Origin: a virus
DNA length: 64,000 bases
Direction: 5' to 3' (one strand)
IMG/VR virus record: IMGVR_UViG_3300028048_000003
Notes under the pieces: generated by a model
The model's input: the letters and a program-made list of their open reading frames with translations, nothing else
The model's database searches: none
What the model was told of the DNA's origin: nothing
In this document: one piece after another, positions 24,138-48,680 of the stretch
How the letters are laid out: the number at the start of each line of letters is the position of its first letter
Numbering within the stretch: position 1 is the stretch's first letter
Program-made: the position numbers and the translations under genes

Positions 24138-25440
24138 CAGTCTTCTTTTTCACATCCTCTTTTTGGTCTTTGCCTAAACCATTAAATCCACCAGTCTGTA
24201 CAGCATATTTTTTATTCAATGCCGATTTCATCTCTGCCTGAGTCATGTCATTATACGGACTATCAATATGCGGCATACCAATAGCATTTCTGTACTCTGC
24301 AAAGGTAATACCGTTATTGTTCCATTGTTCCGTGAGCATCGTCTGCTTCTGTTGCTTCTGCGTCAGCGTATCTTCAAAGACAAACTCGAATTTCAAATAG
24401 TCGCCCATGCCTAAACGACCAATGATTTTCTTGTTAATCTCATCGGCAAGCAGTAAGCAATACGGACGAATCGCCTCATTGAGCATAGACTCATTTTGCT
24501 CTTCCACAGTAGAACGGTCTGTATTACTGCCCTGACCAAGTTTCTTAGGGTCAATGCCAAAGGCGAGAGCAATCTCTGTGATTAACTCTTTTTGCCATTC
24601 AAGGAACAGACCTTCATCACCGTCAGCACCAAGGTGAAGTGCTTGAGCACCCTTCGTACCGCCGATAATTGCCTGTTCACCACGTCCCTGTACCTCTTCA
24701 CGCCAATACTTTCTGAACGCATCGAGGTCTGCCTGTGAGACGTTCTCCCCAAGGTCAAGAGCGTATTTAGGAATAGCATTGTCGGTTTGCGTAGAAGCGT
24801 ATTCTTGAGCACTAGTCAACGCATTGATATGCTGAAAAGCCGCTTCAATAGGAGACAATCCGTATGGCGTATCGACGGTCTTATTATGCTGCAAATAAAG
24901 AACATCCTTGTCATACAGATACGTCCTGTTCGCTCCTACGACCTGACAAAATCGGTAAAACTCTGGATTTGTGAAAAACCCTGTGACATATTCAAGAGCG
25001 AAACCGTTAATCGGATATAACTTCATTGGTCTGCGAATGTCTCCAGTGAAGACAATCTCTGCCGCTCCATTATCTCCAATCAAGGTTTCATTGATAACCT
25101 GTCCCCAAAAAGACTCGTAAGTGTCTGTCTCATTAGGATGCAGGATAATATTCTCCAATGCTTTGATAGCAGCACCATAGGTACGTTTATCTCCTGCATT
25201 GGTAGGGACAATCCTCCAATTCTGCGCTAATACTCCGTCCCGAATAAGGGAAATAGCACGGTGAGGAATTGCCATTCGAGAAAAGTTCCGCAAGCTCCGT
25301 TCGTTCACTTTGATAAGCGAATCTTTTGGAGTGAAGTTAGGCAAAGAAATAATCGTCGTGGCAGACTGCCTTTGAAGGTGTCCGTCAGACGGTGTTTTAA
25401 TGCCAAGGTGGAAAACTTTCCCGAAAGCTCTTATCTCCAT
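24085..25440 (-). CDS. portal protein
   Basis: ~450 aa between TerL and the protease. Start moved to ATG 25440 (MEIRAFG…), which overlaps the TerL stop (ATGGAGATAA). Confidence 0.85.
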   Translation of the reverse strand: MEIRAFGKVFHLGIKTPSDGHLQRQSATTIISLPNFTPKDSLIKVNERSLRNFSRMAIPHRAISLIRDGVLAQNWRIVPTNAGDKRTYGAAIKALENIILHPNETDTYESFWGQVINETLIGDNGAAEIVFTGDIRRPMKLYPINGFALEYVTGFFTNPEFYRFCQVVGANRTYLYDKDVLYLQHNKTVDTPYGLSPIEAAFQHINALTSAQEYASTQTDNAIPKYALDLGENVSQADLDAFRKYWREEVQGRGEQAIIGGTKGAQALHLGADGDEGLFLEWQKELITEIALAFGIDPKKLGQGSNTDRSTVEEQNESMLNEAIRPYCLLLADEINKKIIGRLGMGDYLKFEFVFEDTLTQKQQKQTMLTEQWNNNGITFAEYRNAIGMPHIDSPYNDMTQAEMKSALNKKYAVQTGGFNGLGKDQKEDVKKKTDGEKKRAEEDRGKERNA

Positions 25441-26981
25441 TTTGTGAAAATCCCTCCCATCGGTGTTGGTTTCATGCGCGAGGATAGTCCTCCAAAAACA
25501 AGGCGGTGAGACATGTCTGGGAAAGCAGCAGAACAAATCATGTTAAGTGCATCCATTCCATCATCACTACCCTTTGGAAATCGTAGAAATTCGTTGACAA
25601 GTACAGTCTGGTCTTTACGGAACTTGATGTATTTGTTCTTGATTCTCGGAATCATACCGCGAAGACGTAACTGCTTTTCAACCTTGCTGTTGTACTCATT
25701 AATTGGAATCTGAATACCAGCGTTCAGACCTCTCTTAGCGACTTCATCCTTGAACATCGCTTGGAACTGAACTGTCTCAATCGTCACCGAAACAAGGTGG
25801 CTCTGATACTTCATAGAACCAGCAATAATGAGGTCAATGAGCCTGTCTGGTTTGAATCTTCCCATAGTCACATCAAGTACATAAAGGAATCCGTTCTCAT
25901 CCTTACCAGCGAATATGATTGCTGCTCGGTCTGATTTTGCCTTACCAAGAGAGGGGTCAACAGCGCCATAAACTTCCTTGATTTCTGGAAGTTCATAGTA
26001 GTAATCAAACCACTCAGGAAGGAACTCCGCGTTAGCAGGGTCAATCGGTTCATTCTGATACTCACTTGCAAAAGAGCTACTATCGGAAACCCTAAGTTCC
26101 ATCATGTTCTCGTAATAGTCTGGAGAACTCTCAGGCCAAAGAGATTCGACACCTTTAAGCATCTCGTCTCTGTGCTTCTGATAGAATTGATAGGCATCTT
26201 CGCCAGCTTTAGGGTTGTGCTCGTCCGTGAGGATTTGTTCCCAATCATCCCACAACGGAGAATCCGAAAAGTGCTGTACCGCTTGGTATCTCTTTCTGTC
26301 CCACATTGAGAACGCAGGAGCAGTTAAGAGCTTTTGCAGTAATGACTCATAGTGAAGTACCGTCCCAATGTAGATATAATCGCTTGTCGGCGTACCTACT
26401 GGAATAAGGGCTTTCATAAACCAGTTGAACAACTTTTTTCGTTGCGCTTCTGTCTCTACGTTTTCATCGTTCTCCAAATCATCGATGATGATTAACTCAG
26501 GGCGAATCGAGCCGAACTTATTACCGCGAAGTTTCTGTCCAGCACCACGGCCATAAACCTGTACGCGGTTAGAAGTAATAATCTTATCTTGCGCCCATTT
26601 CTCTTCCGAAACGAGGTCACCAAAGTCGGTTTTGATAAGGTCATTTTCTTCAAGTTCTGTCTTTATCGCCGAAATGAAAGAACGCGCTTGGTCTAACGTA
26701 TCAGAAACGAGCAAAATGTTCCTTTTGTACTTGTAAACTATGCACCAGATAATCAGCAAAAACGAGATAACCTGCGACTTACCATGTCCGCGCGGAGCGG
26801 CTCGAACATAGAAGTTTTTTCGTCTTTTTCTCCTCAGAATCATGTCCTCTGCTGACTTGAAAATTTCCTTGTGTAAAGGGGAAAATGCACAAGAAAATAC
26901 CGAGGGGAAATAGGTAAGAGCGAACTTTTCAAGGGAAGTAGCACAGTCTTTCATGCGCTGTCCCGCGTCCTCTCTATCCAT
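25431..26981 (-). CDS. terL: terminase large subunit
   Basis: 516 aa. Walker A APRGHGKS, Walker B LIIIDDLE, and a C-terminal RNaseH-like nuclease part (AVDPSLGKAKSDRAAIIFAG…). Confidence 0.9.
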   Translation of the reverse strand: MDREDAGQRMKDCATSLEKFALTYFPSVFSCAFSPLHKEIFKSAEDMILRRKRRKNFYVRAAPRGHGKSQVISFLLIIWCIVYKYKRNILLVSDTLDQARSFISAIKTELEENDLIKTDFGDLVSEEKWAQDKIITSNRVQVYGRGAGQKLRGNKFGSIRPELIIIDDLENDENVETEAQRKKLFNWFMKALIPVGTPTSDYIYIGTVLHYESLLQKLLTAPAFSMWDRKRYQAVQHFSDSPLWDDWEQILTDEHNPKAGEDAYQFYQKHRDEMLKGVESLWPESSPDYYENMMELRVSDSSSFASEYQNEPIDPANAEFLPEWFDYYYELPEIKEVYGAVDPSLGKAKSDRAAIIFAGKDENGFLYVLDVTMGRFKPDRLIDLIIAGSMKYQSHLVSVTIETVQFQAMFKDEVAKRGLNAGIQIPINEYNSKVEKQLRLRGMIPRIKNKYIKFRKDQTVLVNEFLRFPKGSDDGMDALNMICSAAFPDMSHRLVFGGLSSRMKPTPMGGIFTKWR

Positions 26982-29201: not shown

Positions 29202-29681
29202 CCAAAAACACGCTCAAACACATTAAAATTACATTAGAATTATATTACAGAAAGCTATAAGACTTAACATGATGTAATGCTACCCCGTAACACTCAATCA
29301 TACTGCCTTGACATCCCTTTTGCCATGCGCCCTCGGCGGCTCTGAAATTGCCCCCTTTTCGTGATACCTGACACTAGCGCGTAACACCGTGAGTAACGCC
29401 AAAAATTGCTGCTCATGTACACCCTCAACAGACACCATTTTCCTCGATTCGTAAACTAAAAAACGCAAAGTGCTTGACGATGTATACGAGAATAAAGCGC
29501 CCCGTAGCTTGATCAAGTGTTTTTTGCAGGTCTGCCGAAAATTGCCCACTCCCGACCCAATCCTTTAGCTAACTAAAGAGGCCGCGAGGCCTTGTGGCAC
29601 TAGGGCTGACGGCGTTTTCACGTTGCATAATTGATATTATAAAACGATTGATAATAATTCCCAATTAATATGGTTAATCAA

Positions 29682-29696
29682 ATTGTCTGACAATTT
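29682..29696. promoter_or_regulatory. palindromic operator-like site ATTGTCTGACAATTT, copy 1
   Basis: Core TTGTC-T-GACAA dyad. Identical 15-mer at 30190-30204. Both are followed by a TTTCTCA segment. Confidence 0.45.
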
Positions 29697-29894
29697 CTTA
29701 TTGATAGATTTTCTCATTTACTTTGACCTTTTGTCCTATATCATTTCTGCATATTATACGCGCGTATTATGCCTTTTTTGTATGTACGCCCACAGTGGAC
29801 ACGTTACTAAAATATACCCCTCTAGGGTATACTAAAGTCAAACTTAAATTTACACTCATTTTATCCAATTCAATTTAGCTAAATCGTTTTTATC

Positions 29895-30110
29895 CCTAGT
29901 AGTATCAAGGCTTTTCGCGCAGCCGAATCCCATTTAGTAATATCCTTTGTTACATAATCATATCTAGTATCATTAGGTCATATTCAATCATACCTAGTAA
30001 TACCTTTGCATATCGGAGAAGTATGTTTTAGTTCGCTAAAGTAAATAGTATTCATACTTGATTGCTATGTTTTAGTAAAGTAAAGAAACAGGAAAATAGT
30101 CCTATCAAGC
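29895..30110. repeat. iteron-like array (TAGTA-core repeats)
   Basis: At least 6 copies: CCTAGTAGTATCAAGG, TTTAGTAATATCCTTTG, AATCATATCTAGTATCATT, AATCATACCTAGTAATACCTTTG, AATAGTATTCAT, AATAGTCCTATCAAGC. Two pairs are spaced 30 and 60 bp. AT-rich context. Confidence 0.45.
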
Positions 30111-30189
30111 GCCCGAAACCCTTATAATCACTAGCTTTATCGCCCTTGTACTCTCTCAATGCACATTTGTTTTGCCTTATCAAATTATT

Positions 30190-30204
30190 ATTGTCTGACA
30201 ATTT
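30190..30204. promoter_or_regulatory. palindromic operator-like site ATTGTCTGACAATTT, copy 2
   Basis: Exact repeat of 29682-29696. Confidence 0.45.
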
Positions 30205-30439
30205 ATTTTTCTCAATGCCCGCCAGCCCTTGTATTTACTAGCCTCATCACTGTTTTCTATCTTTTTCTAATAAAATAAAATATCCATGCTCACATATCAA
30301 CGCCTCTCCAGCCCAATAACTACGCCGCCTGATAGCCTTTTCGATTAGCAAAAAATCAACTGTTTCTCTCATATAAAAAATATACGCGAGGAAATCCCTT
30401 ATTGATAATATTTCTCAAAAGAATTAAAAATAAAAATGC

Positions 30440-30467
30440 TTGCACGTTATTCGTCGTGGGGTATAAC
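30440..30467 (+). promoter_or_regulatory. sigma70-like promoter TTGCAC-16 nt-TATAAC
   Basis: Hexamers at 30440-30445 and 30462-30467, at the AT-rich/GC-rich junction, pointing into the non-coding GC-rich block. Confidence 0.4.
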
Positions 30468-31130
30468 AAGGTTGTCCTTGAGATACGGAAGAAACAAGGG
30501 AGGCAAGAAAGAGAACCGTATCAAGAGAGGAAGCGCGGTTTTCCATTAGGCCGTGACAAGTAAATAATGACGCGCGACGCTCGCGGAAAATGACGTATAG
30601 ACGTTGGAAACGTCGATAAACACAAAGCCCGACCGGAGACGAAAACCCCGCCGTAGTTCCTTCTAGTGATAGTTCTTTGACAATTTCATATTGTACGGAG
30701 GAAGTATCCTCTTTGAAGGGTTTGTATTGCCCGCGATGTTATTTCCGTCTGGCCAGCAGGCTGGATTGGATAGACGGAGCGCCCAGGCAATCGTGCAAAT
30801 CTGGAAAAGTGTAACGCGAGTATCCTATACAATATGATACCATATCGACGCATAAGTTTCGGGAACAGGGGAGACAGCCGCGGGCTGGAAAACCAGCTAT
30901 CAACGCCGCCTTGTCTCTCACACGAGAACCGGCCCGAAAAGACAGCACGGAGGGCGTTTACCGCGTCCGCTTGTTGGCAGCACGCTATTAATTTTAATAG
31001 TGCCGTAGGTCGAACACCAGGCTTTTAGCTGGGCAGTCACCGACCAAAAAACCCTATCAGCGGGGAGAAATCCCCGCTTTCATCGTGCCGAGCAGGTGAG
31101 AGTCTGCAAGGCGCGCCTAATTTTTGCCAA
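30468..31130 (+). ncRNA. candidate large structured non-coding RNA or long structured leader (~0.66 kb), class unknown
   Basis: No credible ORF or SD. GC-rich compared with its surroundings. Many local helices: GATACGG 30482-88 / CCGTATC 30516-22; CCGTCT 30745-50 / AGACGG 30772-77; GAGACA 30871-76 / TGTCTC 30912-17 enclosing GCTGG-AAAA-CCAGC 30884-97; and AGCGGGGA-GAAA-TCCCCGCT 31059-78 (GNRA loop). Confidence 0.35.
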
Positions 31131-31164
31131 GTCAACCTAGATAATGAATAAGGAGGGGCTATCT

Positions 31165-31593
31165 ATGAAAATCAAGTTCTACGAGCAGGCGGGGACGCTC
31201 CACATTATCCCAGAGCGCAAGCACGAGATTCTCCATGGAATATGGAACGCCGTCCGCGATTGCCGCGACGCGATGAAGTGGACGGACGTGCCGCGCCGCA
31301 ATCGCGGCAACGGCGTTCAAAAACCGCAGGTCAAGCGCCCGGCGCCGAAGTGCTTTATCCCGCCAGACAAGACGGTGGGTAGTCGCGAATACAAAATCGG
31401 CCGCAAGGGAAAAGTGATTTTCCGCTTTGATTGGCACATCATCACGTTTTCACGCGACCGGCGCCGTCACGAGTGGAAAGTCACGCCCGAACAGTTCGCC
31501 GCGGCAGAATACGGCCTAAAGATGGGAAAATTTGCCAATCTGGGAATTTTCTGCCAGCAGTTCATGCTCGCCGGTATGAAGGAGGTACACTAA
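31165..31593 (+). CDS. hypothetical basic protein (GC-rich island ORF 1)
   Basis: ATG 8 nt after AGGAGG. 142 aa, Arg-rich, GC3-rich. Confidence 0.6.
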   Translation: MKIKFYEQAGTLHIIPERKHEILHGIWNAVRDCRDAMKWTDVPRRNRGNGVQKPQVKRPAPKCFIPPDKTVGSREYKIGRKGKVIFRFDWHIITFSRDRRRHEWKVTPEQFAAAEYGLKMGKFANLGIFCQQFMLAGMKEVH

Positions 31594-31859
31594 TGATTGC
31601 ACTGAGAATCACCATTAACGGGCGCTACGTCCCATGGGAAATTGACTGGAACGGCGAGACGGCCGTCCTTGCGGAGACAGGCGAAATCATTTTCAGCCGT
31701 GAAGAAGGCCTCATGCCGTACTGGGAGGAGTTCTTTACGCGGCTTTGCGGCTGGGTATCAGAAATCGACGTGCGCGAAGTCGATATCGAGACGGCGGCGA
31801 TGATTCCGCGCCGTAGCCTCAGCCGAACCGCGCGTGAAATGAGAAAGGGGAAGTGCTAA
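31593..31859 (+). CDS. hypothetical protein (GC-rich island ORF 2)
   Basis: TAATG stop-start overlap with ORF 1. GGAGG SD. 88 aa (MIALRITINGRYVPWEIDW…). Confidence 0.6.
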   Translation: MIALRITINGRYVPWEIDWNGETAVLAETGEIIFSREEGLMPYWEEFFTRLCGWVSEIDVREVDIETAAMIPRRSLSRTAREMRKGKC

Positions 31860-31994
31860 ACCGACCATTTTTGCGCCCGCCGGCGCCGCTTTTCCAGCTT
31901 GAACGTTTTACGAGCCTACGCGGATTTTCCCGATTCGCATAGGTTTGCTAATGCTGTCAAGCAGATGTTTTCTCTATCAAGGGAGGTAACAATT

Positions 31995-32243
31995 ATGGAA
32001 TTTGTACTGTATCAGTCCGCTAATAGCACTGGAGTTGTGTTCCTTATGGACGAGGGCTCCGCGCGTGACCTTTTGGCGGTTCATGCCGAACAGGATGAGC
32101 GGGCCGCGGCTGGTAACTTTTTCGGCGCGGAGTGCCTCGATGAGGCGCTGGATTCAATCTGGGATAACGCAACCGTCCTAGAGAAGACGCGCGACAAGCG
32201 AGCTATTGCGGCGCTCAAGCAGCAGTATAAGGAGGTGTGCTGA
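31995..32243 (+). CDS. hypothetical protein (GC-rich island ORF 3)
   Basis: ATG after GGGAGG (MEFVLYQSANSTG…). 82 aa. Confidence 0.55.
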   Translation: MEFVLYQSANSTGVVFLMDEGSARDLLAVHAEQDERAAAGNFFGAECLDEALDSIWDNATVLEKTRDKRAIAALKQQYKEVC

Positions 32244-32450
32244 TAAAGATGAGCTGGCAACAGAGAGAAGCACGAACGGCGCACAAGGTGTATCAGCGTC
32301 AGTTATTGATGAGGCGCTACATTTCCCGTCGTGTCGCTTTTATGCGTGCTTGGTACATCATGGGATATAAAGTAGCTATGCCGATTCGGAAATGAAGAAA
32401 GGAGGCGTTGTTGAATAAGTGCAAGTTCTGAAATGAAACAAGGCAGAAAG

Positions 32451-32494
32451 AAAACCGCCTATCTGTAAAGGGTAGGCGGTTTTATTGTGCCGTG
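32451..32494 (+). repeat. cassette-boundary element copy 1: terminator-like hairpin + TTTATTGTGCCGTG box
   Basis: ACCGCCTA…TAGGCGGT stem (32454-32480), then TTTATTGTGCCGTG (32481-32494). Confidence 0.55.
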
Positions 32495-32524
32495 TTTCAA
32501 CTATCAAAAAAGGAGTGTTTAACT

Positions 32525-32920
32525 ATGGCAACAGTAGCAGAAATTCGCGAGGCAATCAAGGAGAGAAAAGCCCGCTCGGCGTGGAACAGAGGAGTAAAAG
32601 AGTATATGCAGGAGTTCCTCGACGACGTGAAGTTCCACCGCAAACTCGACGAGAATGACGAGGTAGCTCCCGTGAGTAAGAAGGAACTTCTCAACGGTGC
32701 AAAGAGCTGGCAACAGTATAGCGAGGGAGGCTCTTCCCTCGTCTATGCTGAAGATATTTGCGAACGTCTCTGCACACCGTCGTTTCAGAAAAAGAAGAAG
32801 GATGGCGAACTTCCTCCGAATAGCATGGAGACGTGGCTCGACGTACAGGCGCACGCACTCTTCGTCGCCGCTTTCCGTTTCATTCTCCTTGTAAAGAGGA
32901 TGAGTAAGAGGGAGGAGTGA
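32525..32920 (+). CDS. hypothetical protein
   Basis: ATG 9 nt after AAGGAG (MATVAEIREAIKERKARSAWNRGV…). 131 aa. Confidence 0.6.
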   Translation: MATVAEIREAIKERKARSAWNRGVKEYMQEFLDDVKFHRKLDENDEVAPVSKKELLNGAKSWQQYSEGGSSLVYAEDICERLCTPSFQKKKKDGELPPNSMETWLDVQAHALFVAAFRFILLVKRMSKREE

Positions 32921-33024
32921 CCGAACCGACCATTTTCCGCGCGTCCGTAAAGAAAGCCTAGCAGCATTTAGGCGTTGCTGGGCTTTTTCAATATCAAAAT
33001 CTGAATAGGTCTGGAGGAAACAGC

Positions 33025-33381
33025 ATGGAAGAGATTTTAAAAAAAAGCTATAAGGGTGAGAACCTCTATGCAAGGCTATGCAACGAGGAAGCTCAATCCT
33101 TTATGAAATGTTATTGGTCGGACTGTGTTCTCTCTATGGAGGAGATTATGGAGGCGCAGAAGGAGGGCGAGACGGCGTTCATCGTTGTTTTTCGCAAGCT
33201 GGGAGCGGAGCTTTTCCCTGTAAAGAAGGGAGTGAGTAAAAGATTCTCATTCTACAAGAAAAACGAACCAGAGGCGAAAGTGTTCTTGCTAGACTATGAT
33301 TCCGAATGTGTATATTCCCTCTCGTGGGATGAAGCGGAGGCAATTCTAGGGAACAAAGTTTTGAGGAGGTTCTATCTGTAA
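33025..33381 (+). CDS. hypothetical protein
   Basis: GGAGG SD. 118 aa. Confidence 0.6.
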   Translation: MEEILKKSYKGENLYARLCNEEAQSFMKCYWSDCVLSMEEIMEAQKEGETAFIVVFRKLGAELFPVKKGVSKRFSFYKKNEPEAKVFLLDYDSECVYSLSWDEAEAILGNKVLRRFYL

Positions 33382-33394
33382 AAATCAAGACAAA

Positions 33395-33450
33395 ACCATA
33401 GCCAGTTACATTGTGGTGTAACTGGTTTTATTTTGCCGTGATTTTATGTA
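33395..33450 (+). repeat. cassette-boundary element copy 2
   Basis: CCAGTTACA…TGTAACTGG stem (33402-33425), then TTTTATTTTGCCGTGATTTTATGTA. Confidence 0.55.
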
Positions 33451-33470
33451 TAGGTTAGGAGGAATTTATT

Positions 33471-33848
33471 ATGACGTATGAAGAACTTGCCGTGATTCTT
33501 GGTGTGAAGAAAAAATGGTATCGCGAAAAACGCGACAGAGAGGAATGGTTTCTCGGCTACCGTGACCTCGTTGTGAGTGGCACAAATGGATGGAGCGACC
33601 GCGAGTGTGTATGGTTCCATGAGGGAAAAGAACTGCACTTTCTCGAACCGTTCCTGATTGATGATTTGTATGTAATCTGGAATGAAATACACCGCGAGGA
33701 ATCCGACGATGAAGATGCCTTCGACGTGTGGCTGAAAACTATGGAAGGTCATGCGGAGATAGAAGAGGGATTGTATATTTTGCTTGACGCAGCAGAGCAG
33801 AACGCCCGCGATGGTGTTGCAGATAGACAGCTTTATGTAGAGGAATAA
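33471..33848 (+). CDS. hypothetical acidic protein
   Basis: AGGAGG SD. 125 aa. Confidence 0.6.
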   Translation: MTYEELAVILGVKKKWYREKRDREEWFLGYRDLVVSGTNGWSDRECVWFHEGKELHFLEPFLIDDLYVIWNEIHREESDDEDAFDVWLKTMEGHAEIEEGLYILLDAAEQNARDGVADRQLYVEE

Positions 33849-33863
33849 GGAGGTATGGCTAAA

Positions 33864-34115
33864 ATGATTGAAATGATGGCAAGTGCAAGGTGCAAGAAGT
33901 ACCTGAGCCAATCGGAGGAGGAACTGGAGAAGGTGAAATATGCGGTGCGCCGTGCCAAACTGAGCATTGTGGCCGTCGAGCGCCAGTTAGAGATGGGAGT
34001 GAATCCCAAATCAAATATTTCCGAATTGTTAAAACTCGTCAGGTCTATGGAGACAAGTTCCACTATGGCAAGCGTGGCCGAAAAGGCCGCGCGGTTCTAT
34101 GGTGACGCTGTGTAA
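33864..34115 (+). CDS. hypothetical coiled-coil protein
   Basis: The second ATG is chosen because the first is only 1 nt from the GGAGGT SD. Confidence 0.55.
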   Translation: MIEMMASARCKKYLSQSEEELEKVKYAVRRAKLSIVAVERQLEMGVNPKSNISELLKLVRSMETSSTMASVAEKAARFYGDAV

Positions 34116-34128
34116 AGGAGGAATAAAA

Positions 34129-34725
34129 ATGCGTACTATTACCACGACAACTACCACTACGGTCTATAAATTCGATGAGTTATCAGAGGAGGCAAAGGAA
34201 AAAGTCATCGAGGACGCTAGAGATTTTGAAGCGGAATATACCTTAGAGGAAATTGTCGCTTGTATGGCATCTGCTATGGACAAGATGGGAATTACCATCA
34301 AAGATTATTCCATTAACATTGACGGCAGTGGATATATTAACTTGTCCGTAGTGGACGATGACCTTGAAGGTGTCAGGGCATATCGGTATATCGTAAACAA
34401 CTTCTTTAGCGAGGTGAATAAGAAGAAACTCTACTATAAGGAATGGAAAAAACGCAGAAAGTCTGACCTTGATAGGAAAGACTGGATGGATAACTGCCCG
34501 TTCTCTGGATTGTGCTATGACTTCGCAATTCAGTCGGCATGGGAAGATTTCTGTGCAGAGTTAAAACAGGGAGAACGCCCAACTGTTCGTGACTTTCTTG
34601 ACAAGTTGGAATGGGCTTATCTAAAGGAACAGTCCGATGAGTATTACGGCTTCGATGAAGATGCCGCAAGAGAGTTTTCCGAGGCGAACGAATATGAATA
34701 CCTTGAGGACGGAACTATTTACTAA
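34129..34725 (+). CDS. hypothetical acidic protein with N-terminal poly-Thr run
   Basis: AGGAGG SD. MRTITTTTTTTVYKFDELSEEAKEKVIED…ANEYEYLEDGTIY. 198 aa. Confidence 0.6.
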   Translation: MRTITTTTTTTVYKFDELSEEAKEKVIEDARDFEAEYTLEEIVACMASAMDKMGITIKDYSINIDGSGYINLSVVDDDLEGVRAYRYIVNNFFSEVNKKKLYYKEWKKRRKSDLDRKDWMDNCPFSGLCYDFAIQSAWEDFCAELKQGERPTVRDFLDKLEWAYLKEQSDEYYGFDEDAAREFSEANEYEYLEDGTIY

Positions 34726-34752
34726 TTAAGCAATCATAGGGAGGAATAAAAA

Positions 34753-35115
34753 ATGTTGAATCACAACAAGAAAGAGTTTAAGAAAAAAGTACAGGCGTAT
34801 TTCCTTGAGCACGTCCGCGATGAGTTTGATGGTGATATTCTTGAGGACTACGCCGCGTACGCAAGCGGATGGAAGGGAGAGGAAAATTGGTACTACCGTT
34901 CCCAGATGAAATGGGTAGGCTTTCTGAAAGCTACCTGTTTCGGTACTCCCTCCACTGATGAGCAGGAGGAACTGATTAAGGAATGGGAGGAATCGAGCCA
35001 GACGAAAAAGGTCAAGGATATGGCAGAGTATTTCTATTCTACAATCTTCATTTGTGCCGTTAAACCGTACCTCGAAAAACGCGGTGTTTATTACGTAGAA
35101 GTGAAGAACAAGTAA
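34753..35115 (+). CDS. hypothetical protein
   Basis: GGGAGG SD. 120 aa. Confidence 0.6.
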   Translation: MLNHNKKEFKKKVQAYFLEHVRDEFDGDILEDYAAYASGWKGEENWYYRSQMKWVGFLKATCFGTPSTDEQEELIKEWEESSQTKKVKDMAEYFYSTIFICAVKPYLEKRGVYYVEVKNK

Positions 35116-35128
35116 GGGAGGAAAAACA

Positions 35129-35332
35129 ATGGAAAGTGTGACAGTTCACATTAGCGGACGAGCGGCTGCGGTAGTTCGCGCATATATGGAAGAATACAAG
35201 GAAGCCAACCTCACATTTATGGAAGCGCTCGACAACTTGTTAAAGGCAACTTATTTCTTTCGTGTGAGGATGGGAATTAAGTGGGAAGAAGTTGTGCCTT
35301 ATGTTGATGAGGAGGAGAAGGAAGTCTTGTAA
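35129..35332 (+). CDS. hypothetical protein
   Basis: GGGAGG SD. 67 aa. Confidence 0.55.
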   Translation: MESVTVHISGRAAAVVRAYMEEYKEANLTFMEALDNLLKATYFFRVRMGIKWEEVVPYVDEEEKEVL

Positions 35333-35363
35333 AGTAATTTAAGGCAACTAATCAAGGTACACG

Positions 35364-35415
35364 AAGCCGCTTATCATAATTGGTAGGCGGCTTTATTGTG
35401 CCGTGATTCTATGTA
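35364..35415 (+). repeat. cassette-boundary element copy 3
   Basis: AGCCGC…GCGGCT stem (35364-35392), then CTTTATTGTGCCGTGATTCTATGTA. Confidence 0.55.
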
Positions 35416-35435
35416 AATGTAAGGAGGAATAAACC

Positions 35436-35720
35436 ATGAAGGAATGTAAAAACATCTACGAGTTGAAGGATATTCTCTATGAAAAGTTTGACTACTGGGA
35501 CGTAGAGGATTTGACGAAGAGTATCAAGAGGATTGTCAACAATATGGTAGAGGAACAAATCGAGGACGCAGTAGAGGAAGAGCGCAGCGAGAGTGCTTAC
35601 TGGCAGGATGTTGCCGAGGATGCGGAGACAGAGCACGATGAATTGCAGGATGAGGTCATCGAGCTGAAAGAAAAGTTGAAGGAATACGAGCAGGACGATG
35701 GGAAAGTCATTCCGTTCTAA
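35436..35720 (+). CDS. hypothetical very acidic protein
   Basis: AGGAGG SD. 94 aa, E/D-rich. Confidence 0.6.
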   Translation: MKECKNIYELKDILYEKFDYWDVEDLTKSIKRIVNNMVEEQIEDAVEEERSESAYWQDVAEDAETEHDELQDEVIELKEKLKEYEQDDGKVIPF

Positions 35721-35733
35721 GGAGGTATCAGTT

Positions 35734-35907
35734 ATGGATGTAAGAGAGTTGAACAGCGAGCAGTTGGAGAAATTGAAAGTCAACTACTACGCCGAAAGAC
35801 ACGAAGATATGTCGTATGGCGATATTGTGGACATCAACAACCTTGTTTCAGATAAGGAAGTTTTCGAGGAGTACGCAGGGACGATGTTCACCGAAGAGGA
35901 TTTCTAA
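35734..35907 (+). CDS. hypothetical acidic protein
   Basis: ATG after AAGGAGG (MDVRELNSEQ…). 57 aa. Confidence 0.5.
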   Translation: MDVRELNSEQLEKLKVNYYAERHEDMSYGDIVDINNLVSDKEVFEEYAGTMFTEEDF

Positions 35908-35925
35908 GGAGGAAGGAGAAGAAGA

Positions 35926-36075
35926 ATGGCACAAAAACTGATTCTGATTGCGCTTGAATTGGCAGGAATGGTCATTCATCCCTTTCAACGAGAGCGCATT
36001 TGCGTGTATAATGAGGACAACAAGCTAGTGTCGTTCGCATACGGTGAGCGTCCGATTAGCAAGATATGGAGGTAA
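35926..36075 (+). CDS. small hypothetical protein (49 aa, not in ORF track)
   Basis: Own translation: MAQKLILIALELAGMVIHPFQRERICVYNEDNKLVSFAYGERPISKIWR. AGGAGGAAGGAG lies upstream. Confidence 0.45.
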   Translation: MAQKLILIALELAGMVIHPFQRERICVYNEDNKLVSFAYGERPISKIWR

Positions 36076-36080
36076 CAGAG

Positions 36081-36278
36081 ATGAAACTAAGAGGAAAGGT
36101 AACCATCTATGCAGAGCAGGAAATTCCTGATGATGTGTGGAATAGCATGACGAGTGAAGAACAGGAGGAAGCAGCTAGTAACCTTCATTTATTCCTGCGC
36201 CTCGGGGCAGATAACTTCAACTACGGTGGCAACCCTGATGATGATGAACGCTATTATGTATGGTATGATGAGGATTAA
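36081..36278 (+). CDS. hypothetical acidic protein
   Basis: GGAGG SD. 65 aa. Confidence 0.5.
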   Translation: MKLRGKVTIYAEQEIPDDVWNSMTSEEQEEAASNLHLFLRLGADNFNYGGNPDDDERYYVWYDED

Positions 36279-36290
36279 GGGGGATTAATC

Positions 36291-36593
36291 ATGGAAAACG
36301 TAATGGGGAAAATGGAGAAAAAATTCGGTGCCGTTGGTTTCAATTTTAATAAATATGTTCTCATCCAGGATGCCTACCTCGATGGGACTGGTGACGACGC
36401 TGCGTACTTCGCTGATGCTATCAGGGAGGGTGATGAACCTGATGAAGATGGGTATGTTCAAATCTATGAGGTAGAGTGGAAAATCATCTATCCTGACGCT
36501 GAGGATGAGGGAGACAGATGCGATTGGGAAAAACCAGTGGATGTCGATGCGACTGGGGCAAGGTTCAATCTAATGGATGGCTCGGTGTTCTAA
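36291..36593 (+). CDS. hypothetical very acidic protein
   Basis: 100 aa, D/E-rich (…GDEPDEDGYVQIYEVEWKIIYPDAEDEGDRCDWEKPVDVD…). Confidence 0.55.
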   Translation: MENVMGKMEKKFGAVGFNFNKYVLIQDAYLDGTGDDAAYFADAIREGDEPDEDGYVQIYEVEWKIIYPDAEDEGDRCDWEKPVDVDATGARFNLMDGSVF

Positions 36594-36648
36594 TCACCTA
36601 CTGAGTGTGGTTATGAAGGGTAAGGATGTAAATTAAGGAGGAATTGAT

Positions 36649-36891
36649 ATGTATTTCAAAACAGAATTAGATTGGGAGTATCTGGAGAAAAACGTTACTT
36701 ATGACAAGGCAAGAGAGCTTATGGATAGGATTGAGGAGCAGGAGAAAGAGTACGAGTTCATCGTATACATCAAAGAGCACATTTGTCTCGACCCATACGA
36801 AGATGATGTGCTAGACTTAGTGGACGAGCTTGCAGAGAATCCTGACAAACTTGATTTCCTTGAAGACGAAGAAGAAAGGGAGGATGATTGA
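36649..36891 (+). CDS. hypothetical very acidic protein
   Basis: AGGAGG SD. 80 aa, ends …LEDEEEREDD. Confidence 0.55.
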   Translation: MYFKTELDWEYLEKNVTYDKARELMDRIEEQEKEYEFIVYIKEHICLDPYEDDVLDLVDELAENPDKLDFLEDEEEREDD

Positions 36892-36892
36892 C

Positions 36893-37546
36893 ATGAAGGT
36901 TCAGATTGTAGGCTTTGAAGGGTACGACGATGACTGGGGCGGGGTTACTGCGACAGTCCTCGTGAATGGTAAGAAACATACGATTGCAATCCAATGCTGC
37001 GTAACAAAGAGTGGGGAATATGCAGAAAATGACTACAACAATCCAGAGGACAACGGGTGGTTCATCGATGGTTTAGATGTGGAAGAGTTAAGCAACTGCG
37101 TCGTGTGTTCTACTTTCCCATGCGACAAAACGTGTAAAAAGCTCTTTGAAGAGTTCGGAAATTGGGAAAACATCAGGAATCTGATTCGCGCTGTCAATGA
37201 CGAGATTATTCACTGGGACTACGCGCCAGACATCGCCACAGAAATTATCGATGTGTACTCTAACAACCATCGTGGTTATATGAATCCTTTTGACATGGTT
37301 TATACATATAACATCGAGAAAGTTTCCGATGAGGTCGATAGTTTCAAAATCAACAAAGAGAAGGAGGCATGTGAAGACTATATCTATGACTCAGATGATG
37401 AAAGTGAATACCGTGTTCCCATGAAAGAAATCATTGAAGAATATCATGATGAAATCATGGGAGTGTTCTACGAGAGAGAAACAGAGAAATCCTACAAGCA
37501 GACAGCAGCTATCGGTTGGTTTGTTGACGTGGAGAAGGAGGACTAA
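36893..37546 (+). CDS. hypothetical acidic protein
   Basis: ATG after GGGAGG (MKVQIVGFEGYDDDWGG…). 217 aa. Confidence 0.6.
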   Translation: MKVQIVGFEGYDDDWGGVTATVLVNGKKHTIAIQCCVTKSGEYAENDYNNPEDNGWFIDGLDVEELSNCVVCSTFPCDKTCKKLFEEFGNWENIRNLIRAVNDEIIHWDYAPDIATEIIDVYSNNHRGYMNPFDMVYTYNIEKVSDEVDSFKINKEKEACEDYIYDSDDESEYRVPMKEIIEEYHDEIMGVFYERETEKSYKQTAAIGWFVDVEKED

Positions 37547-37548
37547 TT

Positions 37549-37833
37549 ATGGAGAAGATGGATTTTGCAAAGTTCACGGAAAAGATGACTGAGTTCCAGA
37601 AACAGAAGAAAGAAGTGATGGGAGTGATTGTATTCACAGAGAACAGTTTCCCCGCTCCGTATGATGTCACAGGGAGGAGCTACGAGGTGAGCAGTATGGC
37701 AAAATACTTCAATCCATTCGCAGGAGGTAGCGGCCTTGCAGGGAATTGTCTTGACGGTACGGATGATGGCGTTCGGCTGGACTATTACATGAGCGTGTAT
37801 GGATGGGAACCTGAGTATTGCTATATCGCCTAA
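37549..37833 (+). CDS. hypothetical protein
   Basis: AAGGAGG SD. 94 aa. Confidence 0.55.
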   Translation: MEKMDFAKFTEKMTEFQKQKKEVMGVIVFTENSFPAPYDVTGRSYEVSSMAKYFNPFAGGSGLAGNCLDGTDDGVRLDYYMSVYGWEPEYCYIA

Positions 37834-37861
37834 TTTAATTTGACATAGGAGGAAAACTAAA

Positions 37862-38167
37862 ATGGATAAGAAGAAAATGTTTTATGTTCAGGTGTGGCCG
37901 TATGGCATTGGTTATGGCGGTGAAGGTGAGCCGCGTTCATACGCTTTTGAGACACAGGAGGAGCGTGATAAATGGATGAGACAGGACTGGATTGTACGTG
38001 CAGAAGAAGATGGAAACCCTGTTGTCTCGTTCGCTGATTATGCGGATATGCAGAGGGCATATGGGAACAACTTCCGCGTTTTCAAGGATGATGATGGTAA
38101 TCTCTCCGTGTGCAGTTATCTTGAATCAATGAAGATTGCAGAGATTGCCGACGTAGATTTCTTCTAA
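37862..38167 (+). CDS. hypothetical acidic protein
   Basis: AGGAGG SD. 101 aa. Confidence 0.55.
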   Translation: MDKKKMFYVQVWPYGIGYGGEGEPRSYAFETQEERDKWMRQDWIVRAEEDGNPVVSFADYADMQRAYGNNFRVFKDDDGNLSVCSYLESMKIAEIADVDFF

Positions 38168-38221
38168 ATACAAAAAGTCAAGAGAAGTAGATGAGTATTT
38201 TATTGTAATGAGGTGAGCAGT

Positions 38222-38398
38222 ATGAATGTATGGAAGAAGCATAAAGGAAAATTTGAGAAAGTGAACGGCCCGTTTCTCGACAGACTGTTCGATTGGTGGG
38301 AAGGCCGCACGCAGGGCGAGTTCACCGCAGACCGTCTGCGTATGATTGCAAGAGCGCGGAAGATTATGCTGGGAAACCATTTAAGTAAGCATGGATGA
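38222..38398 (+). CDS. small basic hypothetical protein
   Basis: ATG after GAGGTGAG. 58 aa. Confidence 0.45.
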   Translation: MNVWKKHKGKFEKVNGPFLDRLFDWWEGRTQGEFTADRLRMIARARKIMLGNHLSKHG

Positions 38399-38413
38399 AG
38401 GAGGAAAATTAAT

Positions 38414-38626
38414 ATGGATAACAATAACAACGATACGGGAGAGATGCTCAAATGGTTTGGTATTATGCTGCTGGTTTATGCTGGCTTTTTTATCTTTGTC
38501 GGAGCATTAGCTGACTTCTTAGTATCTTGTGGGGCTAACCTAGGTGATGTATTGTTTGTATGTGTTGTATTGCTGATTATTGTATGCTCTTCGAGGGCAT
38601 TTGAGGACTGGAAAGACAGACTGTGA
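38414..38626 (+). CDS. small two-pass membrane protein
   Basis: AGGAGG SD. 70 aa with two hydrophobic helices. Confidence 0.55.
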   Translation: MDNNNNDTGEMLKWFGIMLLVYAGFFIFVGALADFLVSCGANLGDVLFVCVVLLIIVCSSRAFEDWKDRL

Positions 38627-38654
38627 TGAGAGTGGTAGAAAGGTGAGGAATAAC

Positions 38655-39536
38655 ATGACTTGGGATGAACTGTATAAGAAGATTGAGAAAGACCTATTCT
38701 CCTCGATGAGTGAGAACACAGCCAAAGGCTATTTAGCTGACATTAAAATGTTTGAATTTTCAGATAAGCCGTGCCGTGCTGCTGTTGAAAGAAAAAGAAA
38801 GGAGTGGCAGGACAAGGGGCTGTCTGGTAAGACTATCCAGAGGAGGTTTGCCGCGGTCAGATGGGTTCTCGATATGTACCCTCGCGAGTTTGGTCTTGAC
38901 GATATTCTTGACATCAAGTCCGCTATGAAGCACGTTGACATCAATAACAAAGAGATGGTTTACGCCACGAAAGAACAGGCTGACAAGGTTATCTCTATGG
39001 CCGATGAACGGACAGCTCTCTGTGTAGCGATGATGTTCTACGAGGGGATGCGCCGCGACGAGGTATACAACAACAGATTGCAGGACTGGGACATCAAGGG
39101 AGAAGATACTCTCAACGGCGGTGTTCCCGCTATCATTATCCCGCGCACGAAGAACGACGAACCGAGACGTGTACCATTAGCGCAGCAGACGATTGATTGT
39201 TTCCTCCGATATGTAAACGGTGACAGGGTACGGAACGCCAGACTTATCGAGAACGTTTCCCCTAAGACTGCCACCTACACTATTCTCTCTACATACGGTA
39301 GGCTTCGCAGGGAATCTATCCAGCGTGACGTAAAGAAAGCATCCATCGCCGCAGGATTTCCCCAGCTTCATTGTCACAGCTATCGCCACGGTCTTGCTAC
39401 CTTGCTTGCTAAATCGGGGAGGGATTCTATCTATATCGCAACAATGATGGGACACAAGAACCTTAACACAACTCGCCGCTATATCCACCTCTCCCCTGCC
39501 GACCTCAAGAAAGGAACAGAGGATGTGCTAAAGTGA
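38655..39536 (+). CDS. tyrosine recombinase (XerC/D-like integrase or dimer resolvase)
   Basis: 293 aa. ATG after AAGGTGAGG. Catalytic-type motifs …EGMRRDEV…, LHCHSYRHGLAT (HxxR) and GHKNLNTTRRYIHLS (Tyr). Confidence 0.85.
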   Translation: MTWDELYKKIEKDLFSSMSENTAKGYLADIKMFEFSDKPCRAAVERKRKEWQDKGLSGKTIQRRFAAVRWVLDMYPREFGLDDILDIKSAMKHVDINNKEMVYATKEQADKVISMADERTALCVAMMFYEGMRRDEVYNNRLQDWDIKGEDTLNGGVPAIIIPRTKNDEPRRVPLAQQTIDCFLRYVNGDRVRNARLIENVSPKTATYTILSTYGRLRRESIQRDVKKASIAAGFPQLHCHSYRHGLATLLAKSGRDSIYIATMMGHKNLNTTRRYIHLSPADLKKGTEDVLK

Positions 39537-39606
39537 GCAAAATCGGCTCGACGAGATGCAAAAAAATACCTCCGAATATGATAGAGCACTTTCACGAAAA
39601 AGAGAC

Positions 39607-39635
39607 TTGTCACAGGTCTGGGCTTGTGATATTCT
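39607..39635 (+). promoter_or_regulatory. possible promoter TTGTCA-17 nt-TATTCT
   Basis: Hexamers at 39607-12 and 39630-35, upstream of the 39659 ORF. Confidence 0.3.
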
Positions 39636-39658
39636 CAAATAAAAGGAGGTGGCTATCA

Positions 39659-39877
39659 ATGCCGCGTAAAGTAGACTACGATATGAAGCTCTCAAAACTC
39701 GCCGATAAGCTCAAGAAGAACGAAGAAGAGTACCAGAAACTAAAAGATGCTTATGACAAAACCAAAGAAGAGAAAAACCGCAAGTTTTACAAGAAGCTCC
39801 TAAACTTTATGGAGAAGAACAACATTTCCCCTGATACCGCTCTCGAGATTTTAGAGAAGAATCTGCCTACGACCTAA
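39659..39877 (+). CDS. small coiled-coil hypothetical protein
   Basis: ATG after AAAGGAGG (MPRKVDYDMKLSKLADKLKKNEEEYQKL…). 72 aa. Confidence 0.5.
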   Translation: MPRKVDYDMKLSKLADKLKKNEEEYQKLKDAYDKTKEEKNRKFYKKLLNFMEKNNISPDTALEILEKNLPTT

Positions 39878-39958
39878 TTCGTCATAGGTTGAGAAAAACA
39901 CCTACCTTCGTTTTCCTGCTGATAGGGTTAGCATGGACAGATAGACTTTTTGGTGAAC

Positions 39959-39996
39959 AAAAAAACACCTACTTTTTTAAGGTAGGTGTTTTTCTC
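39959..39996. terminator. bidirectional intrinsic terminator between convergent operons
   Basis: AAAAACACCTAC-TTTTTTAAG-GTAGGTGTTTTT, with an A-run on one side and a T-run on the other. Sits between stop 39877 (+) and stop 40000 (-). Confidence 0.7.
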
Positions 39997-39999
39997 AGT

Positions 40000-42518: not shown

Positions 42519-42759
42519 CATATAATCGACTATCACTAGCCGTACTGACTATATCATCTACTATTTCTAGCAGCCCTCCGCTTCGGAACAGTACCTATCT
42601 CTGTCCCTACATGGTTACACTCATCACCATTAGTCGATACACTTTACTGTTTCCAGTCTTAGCACGGACTCATCTCATAAAGACCTATCCGTTAGCACGA
42701 AAAATCGCACACCCTCTAGGTGAGGTTCAAAGGGTTTTACATGGGCTGAGGATTCGCTT
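42519..42759 (-). ncRNA. group I self-splicing intron 2 (241 nt, no ORF)
   Basis: Separates …EYIGTMG from CRTAV…. The 5' exon ends in U (ggU 42760). The intron ends in G (42519). Exon AUGGGU (42765-42760) pairs with intron GCCCAU (42746-42741), with a U:G wobble at the splice site. Stops occur in the exon frame. Confidence 0.75.
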
Positions 42760-44307: not shown

Positions 44308-44473
44308 TTTTCTCCTCCAAAACCTTATACATACCTCCTGCTCGATAAGCAACTACTACGTTACCCTCGGCATCCTTAAACAAGTACACATCGCCACAAG
44401 CGCACCTAGCGTACCCATTCTCCATATACTTATCCCACAGCACATCCCAGCACCTCATGCACTTGACTTTCAT
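44288..44473 (-). CDS. small Cys-rich (zinc-ribbon-like) protein
   Basis: 61 aa. MKVKCMRCWDVLWDKYMENGYARCACGD…. Confidence 0.45.
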   Translation of the reverse strand: MKVKCMRCWDVLWDKYMENGYARCACGDVYLFKDAEGNVVVAYRAGGMYKVLEEKNDSNEA

Positions 44474-48602: not shown

Positions 48603-48604
48603 AT

Positions 48605-48680
<76 letters not shown>

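Follow-up and report, generated by a model that had tools for sequence, protein, structure and literature searches.

A new family of large structured RNA at the head of an operon, between promoter and first gene, in one lineage of gut phages

Introduction

Bacterial and phage RNAs that exceed 500 nucleotides (nt) and show strong covariation are, to our knowledge, rare, the usual list being OLE, GOLLD, ROOL, HEARO and raiA, each of which has opened structural or mechanistic work. ROOL and GOLLD are phage-borne RNAs of 0.6–0.8 kilobases (kb) with many covarying helices and no known protein partner or function, and they often adjoin tRNA genes or tRNA islands in phages and prophages, whereas OLE and raiA are chromosomal and not phage-borne. 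Among the RNAs that act in cis, the HK022 put RNAs and the lambdoid nut sites are antitermination elements just downstream of early promoters, about 15–70 nt long and near the promoter. The P4 CI, P1/P7 c4 and N15 CA RNAs are 70–90 nt long, are processed from a leader and have identifiable complementary targets. ROOL forms a homo-octameric RNA-only nanocage, ROOL env-120 being 659 nt long, and in GOLLD conservation is higher in the 3′ region than in the 5′ region (PMC12286853). Here we describe a structured RNA element encoded at positions 30474–31130 of the plus strand (+) in a 64,000-nt stretch of phage DNA (hereafter the window), the IMG/VR virus record IMGVR_UViG_3300028048_000003, and compare it with these systems. 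An earlier examination of the window (the sequence-only reading) had proposed at this place a large structured RNA of no known class behind a sigma-70-like promoter, and had offered membership of ROOL, GOLLD or HEARO, a new class, or a very long regulatory leader as its possible identities.

Results

Homologues of the RNA are confined to one lineage of gut phages

BLASTN in distant mode with positions 30380–31200 of the window gave no match among GenBank phages and PLSDB plasmids. A protein search of IMG/VR with the open reading frame (ORF) downstream of the element led to one contig, L001, of which the noncoding DNA aligns with that of the window over 1.7 kb. Exact and degenerate DNA-pattern scans of IMG/VR, the JGI metagenome contigs and the GTDB genomes returned as the sole true relative one IMG/VR contig (L001/L002), indicating that the family is rare in these three collections; the other pattern matches (L003–L018 and L037) were attributed to chance by BLAST and context. 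In a collection of 5.8 billion proteins, 26 homologues of the downstream ORF were detected, and their contigs yielded 11 further distinct RNA copies. The homologue set so gathered through the downstream protein and its contigs (n = 13, termed type A below) comes from gut metagenome phage contigs and shows that the RNA family is confined to one lineage of ~70-kb gut phages. Literature searches returned no description of this RNA, the catalogue of Fremin et al. (2023) lying outside that comparison.

Compensatory changes demonstrate a selected RNA fold

Two alignments were analysed, one of the 3′ core (window 30625–31150, 11 sequences, folded by RNAalifold) and one of the full length (13 sequences). 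In the 3′ core, 135 pairs were predicted, and 97.3% of the cells were paired compared with 89.1 ± 0.5% when the 3′ partners were shuffled. Changes on both sides were found at 55 of the 135 pairs versus 26.1 ± 2.9 in the shuffles, none of 500 shuffles reaching 55, and controls shifted in register by 1–3 columns gave 6–9 compensatory pairs. The full-length alignment contained 139 pairs, 57 of them compensatory, and the window and L001 as a pair alone displayed 21. With 13 homologues and 55–57 compensatory pairs, the proposal of a large structured RNA of no known class behind a sigma-70-like promoter is therefore borne out.

The fold is also strand-specific. G–U combinations occupied 199 cells versus 21 for A–C, and 97.3% of cells were paired on the plus strand versus 85.2% on the minus strand; the excess of G–U over A–C indicates that the structure exists on the plus strand only and that the plus strand is the transcribed one. 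Relative to shuffled sequences, the minimum-free-energy (MFE) z-score was −4.3 on the plus strand and −2.4 on the minus strand. Paired and unpaired columns were variable about equally often (52% versus 48%), and homologues differed by helix-sized insertions and deletions, a signature of a selected RNA fold.

No sign of protein coding was detected among the homologues, as the sequence-only reading had anticipated in seeing no plausible ORF up to the Shine–Dalgarno (SD) sequence. The variable columns lacked a 3-nt periodicity (variable/invariant columns by phase 89/86, 91/85 and 83/92; chi-square p = 0.70), and no ORF was conserved, each frame being cut by stops or frameshifts in some homologue and the open stretches differing between them. 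An apparent conserved peptide, ‘ENRG...RLGETGRRG’, was rejected as nucleotide conservation only, being broken by stops or frameshifts in L036, L025, L028 and the window. Homologues were thus found, they carry compensatory changes and no protein frame is conserved, so that the three opposite outcomes, which the earlier examination had named among those arguing against an RNA, do not apply. Altogether, the alignments show that positions 30474–31130 (+) encode a genuine, evolutionarily maintained, multi-domain structured RNA of ~655 nt.

Conservation between the window and L001 falls in steps across this part of the genome: the terminase proteins are identical, the AT-rich DNA upstream of the RNA is ~95% identical, the RNA ~78% and the first protein of the downstream operon 55%. 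Such steps would be expected where a mosaic early or immunity region has its border.

The RNA belongs to no family in Rfam 15

All 4227 models of Rfam 15 were compared with the whole window at the gathering score, with positions 29800–31700 at E ≤ 10 under permissive filters, and with six homologue loci at E ≤ 10. At the gathering score, the whole window matched by four tRNAs only. Over the RNA element itself no match was obtained in the window, even at E ≤ 10, or in nine related loci, and chance-level matches of microRNA and small-RNA models (E > 1) fell only outside the element or at its edge. The models of ROOL, GOLLD, HEARO, OLE and raiA matched neither the window nor the homologues, and no Rfam model of group I or II introns, RNase P, tmRNA, riboswitches or self-cleaving ribozymes matched the element. 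For a HEARO or IscB omega RNA, an IscB- or TnpB-like ORF was looked for next to the element and none was found, the neighbouring ORFs being small, devoid of Pfam or PHROG nuclease domains and not conserved as partners. The RNA therefore stands outside every Rfam 15 family. These searches at E ≤ 10 and the lack of an adjacent IscB-type ORF give no support to the ROOL, GOLLD or HEARO membership suggested before, and the alternative of a new class fits the data.

A conserved promoter precedes the RNA

A sigma-70/sigma-A-type promoter is read on the plus strand just upstream of the element, with the −35 hexamer TTGCAC at 30440–30445, a 16-nt spacer and the −10 hexamer TATAAC at 30462–30467, exactly where the sequence-only reading had placed it. 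Its hexamers are kept in 12–13 of the 13 homologous sequences, and the spacer varies in L001, L038 and L040. A generic promoter scan missed TATAAC solely through requiring T at position 6 of the −10 hexamer. Transcription probably starts near 30474, and conservation of the RNA ends at ~31130, 20 nt before the SD; the likely start and the end of conservation together give the module of ~655 nt. The 20–35 nt that follow, up to the SD, consist of unrelated cassettes that travel with the downstream gene, and the first true start codon is at 31165. The abrupt switch from AT-rich to GC-rich DNA remarked on earlier holds as well, from a GC content of ~0.35 to ~0.52 overall, or from 0.32–0.37 at 29600–30500 to 0.49–0.56 at 30500–31400.

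A promoter scan of the window found no promoter-like site between the RNA and the first genes, from which their co-transcription is inferred. Sigma-70-like promoter matches were depleted over 31000–40200 (6 observed versus 13.1 ± 3.6 expected). The RNA is thus quite likely made from the TTGCAC–TATAAC promoter as the 5′ 0.65 kb of a rightward, presumably early, transcript.

Seven domains build the RNA

Mapping the consensus fold of the homologue alignments onto window coordinates divides the RNA into a leader motif, seven domains (D1–D7) and a 3′ tail, all on the plus strand. At its 5′ end lies the promoter-proximal leader motif AAGGTTGTCCTTGAGATACGG (30468–30488), nearly invariant in 12 of the 13 type A sequences and also given as UUGUCCUUGAGAUA; it may act either as RNA or as a DNA operator. 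D1 (30475–30645) is a variable 5′ domain, present in its long version in the window with hairpins at 30475–30488/30516–30531 and 30600–30605/30609–30614. Among the homologues it occurs in three lengths, ~150, ~70 and ~25 nt, and it looks exchangeable. In the long versions (n = 6), 8 of the 38 predicted pairs are compensatory, and the detailed fold of D1, as modelled, is less certain than that of the core. A linker follows (GCCG..ACUUCU..UAGUUCUUUGAnAAUUUCA, 30646–30685) that is unpaired in the consensus fold and highly conserved in 13 of 13 sequences.

D2 (30686–30837) is a long irregular hairpin arm of eight helical segments with an 11-base-pair (bp) tip at 30743–30754/30759–30770, and its helices (3–11 of the consensus) hold 25 compensatory pairs. 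D3 (30850–30946) is branched, with helices 30857–30863/30933–30939, 30869–30875/30913–30919, 30877–30882/30904–30909 and 30883–30888/30893–30898, the last closed by an AAAA loop. Sixteen compensatory pairs fall in the D3 helices (12–17 of the consensus); in the alignment of the window with L001, for example, CUGG-AAAA-CCAG corresponds to CGUG-AAAA-CACG, and GAGAC/GUCUC to GCGCG/CGCGC, within GAGACAG/CUGUCUC and GCGCGC/GCGCGC. Nested helices had been pointed out here before, and those at ~30869–30919 are real and covary. Most homologues have a 21-nt hairpin in D3 that is missing from the window.

D4 (30947–31006) is a multi-stem domain composed of 30947–30950/31003–31006, 30953–30957/30963–30968 and 30983–30989/30996–31002, the last helix showing the strongest covariation of the full alignment, and it holds the invariant CGCUUGUUGGCAGCACG (30968–30984). 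UGUUGG of D4 (30972–30977) could pair with UCAACG of D3 (30900–30905) over 6 bp, two of which covary and with one exception among the sequences, so a pseudoknot is proposed tentatively. D5 (31008–31045) is a hairpin with inner helices, closed by 31008–31012/31041–31045 and containing the conserved GGGCAGUCACCGACC; in L040 it is swapped for a different hairpin. An A-rich linker separates it from D6 (31060–31077), the 7-bp hairpin GCGGGGA-GAAA-UCCCCGC, in which GCGGGG/CCCCGC changes to GCAGGG/CCCUGC. D6 is the GAAA-capped stem singled out before, and its covariation supports it.

D7 (31080–31115 including UCAU, hairpin 31084–31115) is the most conserved element of the RNA and reads UCAU followed by CGUGCC-GAG-CAGG-UGAGAG-UCUG-CAA-GGCGCG. 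Its stems and loops are nearly invariant, one covarying pair being A–U in 6 and G–C in 5 of 11 sequences, and its fold energy is −17 kcal/mol. The 3′ tail CCUAAUUUUUGCCAA (31116–31130), with a U tract at 31121–31125 and the type A consensus UAAyUUUyG, marks the end of the conserved module. The D7 stem is followed by CCUAA and then U5, i.e. the U tract begins 5 nt from the stem, compared with 0–2 nt in an intrinsic terminator, and a generic scan calls no terminator. Four to five U residues after D7 are kept in all type A sequences, and an A tract follows the homologous hairpin in L055, which carries a related leader (type C, see below). The distance of the U tract and the A tract of type C make a terminator role of D7/U5 uncertain, and point to a recognition element rather than a plain terminator.

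Further helix-sized differences include an extra hairpin in L030 and L040 and a large D3 insertion in L038. Along the RNA lie several loops of GNRA or A-rich sequence, as well as long unpaired stretches that are conserved. The 5′ domain type and the type of the SD-proximal cassette assort independently among the type A sequences, and no covarying long-range complementarity between the variable domains and the SD-proximal cassette was found in the type A alignment.

Other pairings were considered and rejected. A helix closing the 5′ and 3′ ends, AAGGUUG with UAAUUUU/CAACC, was proposed by MFE folding and RNAalifold, but no compensatory change supports it, and the likely start coincides with its 5′ strand or comes after it. 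The long-range pairing GCCCGACCGG/CCGCUUGUUGGC, taken from a two-sequence fold, is unsupported by sequences with other 5′ domains. Pairing of UUGGCA in D4 with UGCCAA in the 3′ tail proved inconsistent among homologues on inspection of the alignment, and that of UUGUC in the leader with GACAA in the linker is broken in most of them. In principle D6 or the 5′ UCCUU could sequester the SD, but these pairings show no informative covariation.

The RNA occupies a fixed place between divergent modules

Every carrier has the RNA downstream of a conserved sigma-70-type promoter and ahead of the first gene's ribosome-binding site, in an operon that points away from the packaging and structural module, with one copy per genome. 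All carrier loci are alike in that minus-strand (−) genes of 179, 95 and 83 amino acids (aa) are followed by a ~2-kb gene-free gap and then by the first plus-strand gene. This gap separates the divergent modules and consists of an AT-rich half (~29550–30440) and a GC-rich half, i.e. the RNA element. In the window, the minus-strand packaging and structural module extends from ~28.5 kb leftwards and includes the large terminase (25431–26981), the portal protein and a 2958-aa ORF, and a block of small genes without assigned function extends rightward of 31165 (+). Farther to the right are encoded a tyrosine integrase, a split anaerobic ribonucleotide reductase, PhoH, a dUTPase, four tRNA genes, a primase-helicase, Rad52, a ParM-like ATPase and Pol III alpha.

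The first ORF of the rightward operon (31165–31593 (+), 142 aa), preceded by the SD AAGGAGG at 31150–31156, is a neighbour and not part of the RNA. The homologous first-gene proteins start with MKIKFY, and the ORF matched no Pfam or PHROG family. It comprises 142 aa in the window versus 192 aa in nearly all homologues and is followed by an overlapping 142-aa ORF in another frame (31431–31859), so the window could hold a shorter variant or a frameshift. In L038 the RNA precedes a different first gene of 113 aa, and in L039 (NCBI assembly GCA_034286655.1, positions 1–940) a homologue of the first ORF (191 aa) stands behind another gene and a terminator-like hairpin without the leader RNA; the RNA and the first gene can thus be separated as modules. 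Inside the rightward operon, at 33400–33427 (+/−), is a strong terminator-like hairpin, bidirectional and with a 12-bp stem followed by a U-rich tail.

The terminase of the window is Mu-like and ~38% identical to its nearest counterparts in GenBank phages, those of Faecalibacterium phage Mushu and a Clostridium phage. The related contigs are 66–73 kb long and derive from gut metagenomes, their records naming pig gut and ‘gut metagenome’. The tyrosine integrase (38580–39536 (+)) and the ParM/actin-like segregation ATPase (60411–61355 (+)) are encoded in the same genome; their co-occurrence, together with primase-helicase, Rad52 and Pol III alpha, suggests a temperate phage maybe kept as a plasmid, and the lineage is one of ~70-kb temperate-type, possibly plasmid-like gut phages. 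The prophage and Gram-positive context assumed by the sequence-only reading is broadly right as to a temperate-type phage of ~70 kb with a Faecalibacterium/Clostridium-like terminase; the phages are known from metagenomic contigs, and the host part of that assumption is unproven.

Other features of the window were recorded beside these. The AT-rich, ORF-free stretch at 29550–30440 (GC ~0.32–0.37), upstream of the promoter, is ~95% identical to that of L001 and thereby exceeds the conservation of the RNA. It contains iteron-like repeats ~60 nt apart (29867, 29926 and 29986), the palindrome ATTGTCTGACAAT twice (29682 and 30190) and a duplicated box CTTATTGATAnnTTTCTCA (29692 and 30393), the second copy of which is immediately upstream of the RNA promoter, and is a candidate origin, operator or packaging region. 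The four tRNA genes (Leu-TAA, Thr-TGT, Gln-TTG and Lys-TTT) lie at 47859–48680 (−), ~17 kb from the RNA. Two separate minus-strand ORFs encode the anaerobic ribonucleotide reductase NrdD, the N-terminal part at 43693–44352 and the C-terminal part at 41556–42536, with a 182-aa ORF (42727–43275) in between. An intron, intein or homing-endonuclease insertion is possible in this region (41556–44352), in which the Rfam scan of the window found no intron.

Sister phages have different long leaders in this slot

A terminase search of IMG/VR retrieved sister phages (terminases 73–83% identical) that lack this RNA and have other long ORF-free stretches at the same slot, with sigma-70-like promoters of their own at the same relative place (TTGACA-17-TACAAT, TTGCAT-17-CATATT and TTGACA-17-TATGAT). 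Type B leaders of ~560–600 nt (L044:1050–1660(−), L127:7861–8473(−) and L120–L126; terminase ~78% identical) lie behind TTGACA-17-TACAAT. They covary as well, with 96.7% of cells paired and 19 compensatory pairs versus 10.2 ± 1.8 in shuffles and 1–5 in slid controls, and they had no Rfam match. The type C leader (L055:2290–3340(−), ~1.05 kb) shares with the window RNA the motif UUGUCCUUGAG, the linker motif UUCUUUGAnAAUUnCAUA and D6–D7. A covariance model (R1) finds D6–D7 in L055 at 19.8 bits, the loop GGUGAnAnUC being kept and the outer stem of D7 changed compensatorily to CAUC/GAUG. Type D (L043:2340–3310(−), ~0.9 kb) shares the 5′ motif UUGUCCUUGAG and the linker motif UUCUUUGAnAAUUnCAUA. 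The motif UUGUCCUUGAG, which is part of the leader motif of type A, thus appears in L055 as GATTGTCCTTGAGAG and in L043 as ATTTGTCCTTGAGGG; the linker sub-motif recurs more weakly in type B. Sequence-profile links among types A, B and C were marginal (E 0.02–0.05 in a tiny database), so a superfamily of types A, C and D is plausible and homology of type B to type A is unproven. L043 comes from the IMG isolate genome 2513237213, through which a cultivable host might be identified.

A decayed type A copy was observed in L042 (985–1655 (−)), the terminase of which is 100% identical to that of the window. There a mini-CRISPR-like array has taken the place of the D2 interior, the basal D2 helix is retained, and D5–D7 and most of the first gene are deleted. 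The array comprises three direct repeats of ~36 nt at 75-nt spacing, with a sub-threshold match to Rfam CRISPR-DR18 (35 bits, E 0.023) antisense to the leader. One spacer agrees at 39 of 40 positions with a downstream ORF of L042 itself, and the other matches the window at 58971–59005 (−) at 33 of 35, which suggests phage-against-phage targeting.

Discussion

The function of the RNA was weighed against its fold, its place and its relatives. The explanation that we favour overall, and favour tentatively, is a giant cis-acting leader that controls expression of the early operon. As to the specific mechanism, our best single guess, offered as a guess, is that the large upstream fold D2–D5 with the exchangeable D1 would serve as a scaffold or sensor, and that D6–D7 together with the A/U-rich tail, 35–100 nt before the start codon, would act as the effector deciding whether RNA polymerase and ribosomes proceed into the early genes. 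The control might be attenuation or a put/nut-like antitermination, and might be linked to immunity among related phages. Conservation is strongest, also in the loops, in D6–D7 near the SD, and this module survives in the type C leader; type A RNA is never found away from the promoter-to-first-gene slot, and types B, C and D keep that slot. Long ORF-free stretches at the same slot in the sister phages, one of them covarying, argue that position at the operon head is part of the function, and the terminator-like hairpin at 33400–33427 would give a control of read-through or processivity its target. The very long regulatory leader of the sequence-only reading also fits the data and is, as a putative function, compatible with a new class.

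Several points weigh against a cis-acting leader. The start site and the 3′ end are putative, as is co-transcription with the ORFs, and we know of essentially no precedent in bacteria or phages for cis-regulatory leaders of 0.6–1 kb that are this structured, known RNAs of such size being mostly trans-acting or catalytic. The D7 hairpin and the U5 after it might do no more than terminate a discrete RNA. No covarying alternative (switching) pairing with the SD was found, and D1 type is uncorrelated with SD-cassette type. The first gene is not fixed (L038) and occurs without the RNA (L039), so that there is no specific RNA–gene partnership. The loss of D5–D7 in L042 means that the module is dispensable or decayed there, and the link between type A and type B consists of short motifs only.

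Nearly as likely as a cis leader is a stand-alone, trans-acting ornate RNA, namely a discrete molecule of ~655 nt released by termination at D7 and the U tract or by processing, with read-through feeding the genes; by analogy with ROOL and GOLLD it might work as an RNA-only assembly or a ribonucleoprotein early in infection or induction, and we regard this as a real though not the leading possibility. The size, many-domain fold and covariation density resemble those of the known large, mostly trans-acting RNAs, and the length of ROOL env-120 (659 nt) and the conserved 3′ and less conserved 5′ parts of GOLLD (PMC12286853) have their counterparts here. The module moreover ends with a hairpin and U4–5, conservation stopping ~5 nt later, it is not tied to a particular downstream gene, and its GNRA and A-rich loops and conserved unpaired stretches could make tertiary or quaternary contacts. 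However, the U tract comes 5 nt after the stem and is not called by the terminator scan, and it is replaced by an A tract in type C though D7 is conserved; the RNA has never been seen outside the promoter-to-first-gene slot or beside the tRNA cluster (47.9–48.7 kb), and it has no similarity to the ROOL or GOLLD models.

A broader interpretation takes together types A–D, which have only a few sequence islands in common: in a clade of ~70-kb gut phages, the early transcription unit would open with a modular, rapidly diversifying structured RNA of 0.55–1.05 kb that represents a new RNA machine. Such a machine might reprogramme polymerase or ribosome, or set immunity specificity between competing phages, and would be neither a passive leader nor another nanocage, at a locus that can also be exchanged for a mini-CRISPR array directed at sibling phages; we consider both its existence and this mode of action doubtful.

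That the leader serves RNA-based immunity or inter-phage competition, parts of it giving rise by processing to small RNAs directed at the nascent early transcripts from the same or related phages in the manner of P4 CI, P1/P7 c4 and N15 CA, with the rapidly diversifying domains as specificity determinants, appears unlikely on this analogy. It would suit an RNA at the operon head of a temperate-type genome which, with its integrase and ParM-like ATPase, appears phage-plasmid-like in lifestyle, as are P1, P4 and N15, and sharp divergence and module swapping occur exactly here in phages of which the packaging genes are 100% identical. The L042 array at the same locus, with spacers matching its own early region (39/40) and the window phage (33/35), can be taken to mean that the locus is used for nucleic-acid-guided competition. 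Against this, no complementary targets covary with the variable domains, D1 type is uncoupled from SD-cassette type, and the known immunity RNAs measure 70–90 nt versus a conserved core of 500 nt here; since the L042 repeats are antisense to the leader, the array may be an unrelated insertion into a decaying locus.

It is highly improbable that the element works as DNA (a replication origin, packaging site or recombination hotspot) or is a cryptic coding region: it does adjoin the highly conserved AT-rich stretch with its iteron-like repeats and palindromes and lies near the 83-aa helix-turn-helix protein with weak similarity to replication initiators, and its GC-rich DNA does yield open stretches of 80–110 codons, but the 55 compensatory pairs speak against DNA and coding alike, DNA cruciforms would not show the asymmetry of 199 G–U versus 21 A–C cells and of one-strand pairing, the iteron-like repeats lie upstream of the promoter and outside the RNA element, and codon periodicity is absent and the frames are broken in homologues.

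The RNA adds to the large structured RNAs a well-supported fold with at least 55 compensatory pairs, natural variants in which domains are swapped or deleted, and a fixed and interpretable place at the very head of an early operon in uncultured gut phages. This combination makes its function directly testable, and whether it acts in cis or in trans is a good experimental target. Should it prove to be a cis-acting gate, its ~0.65 kb would far exceed every such leader known in phages; should it act in trans, it would constitute a new ornate RNA class. The different long leaders at the same slot and the L042 array point to a hotspot of RNA innovation in phage–phage or phage–host conflict; the narrow distribution of the RNA tempers the generality of the finding.

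Compared with the known systems, D6–D7 may be likened to put and nut in being a two-hairpin module with sequence-specific loops in a presumed nascent early transcript, with a terminator-like site inside the operon; unlike put and nut, it comes ~590 nt after the start, on the far side of a conserved fold of 500 nt, and has no boxA-like motif. As with P4 CI, P1/P7 c4 and N15 CA, the RNA would be a noncoding one in the operon leader of a temperate, plasmid-like phage, at a locus variable between close relatives, whereas its conserved structure is ~7 times larger. With HEARO, OLE and raiA it has in common that all are large structured noncoding RNAs. It differs from ROOL and GOLLD in showing no similarity to either Rfam model even at E ≤ 10, in having no tRNA beside it in the window or the homologue loci examined with Rfam, and in always occupying the promoter-to-first-gene slot of one operon in a single phage lineage. 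Like ROOL and GOLLD, it is phage-borne, ~655 nt long and built of many covarying helices, its 3′ core being conserved and its 5′ domain exchangeable, though the likeness to GOLLD goes no further than this general layout, and it is a new RNA family within the known category of large structured phage RNAs.

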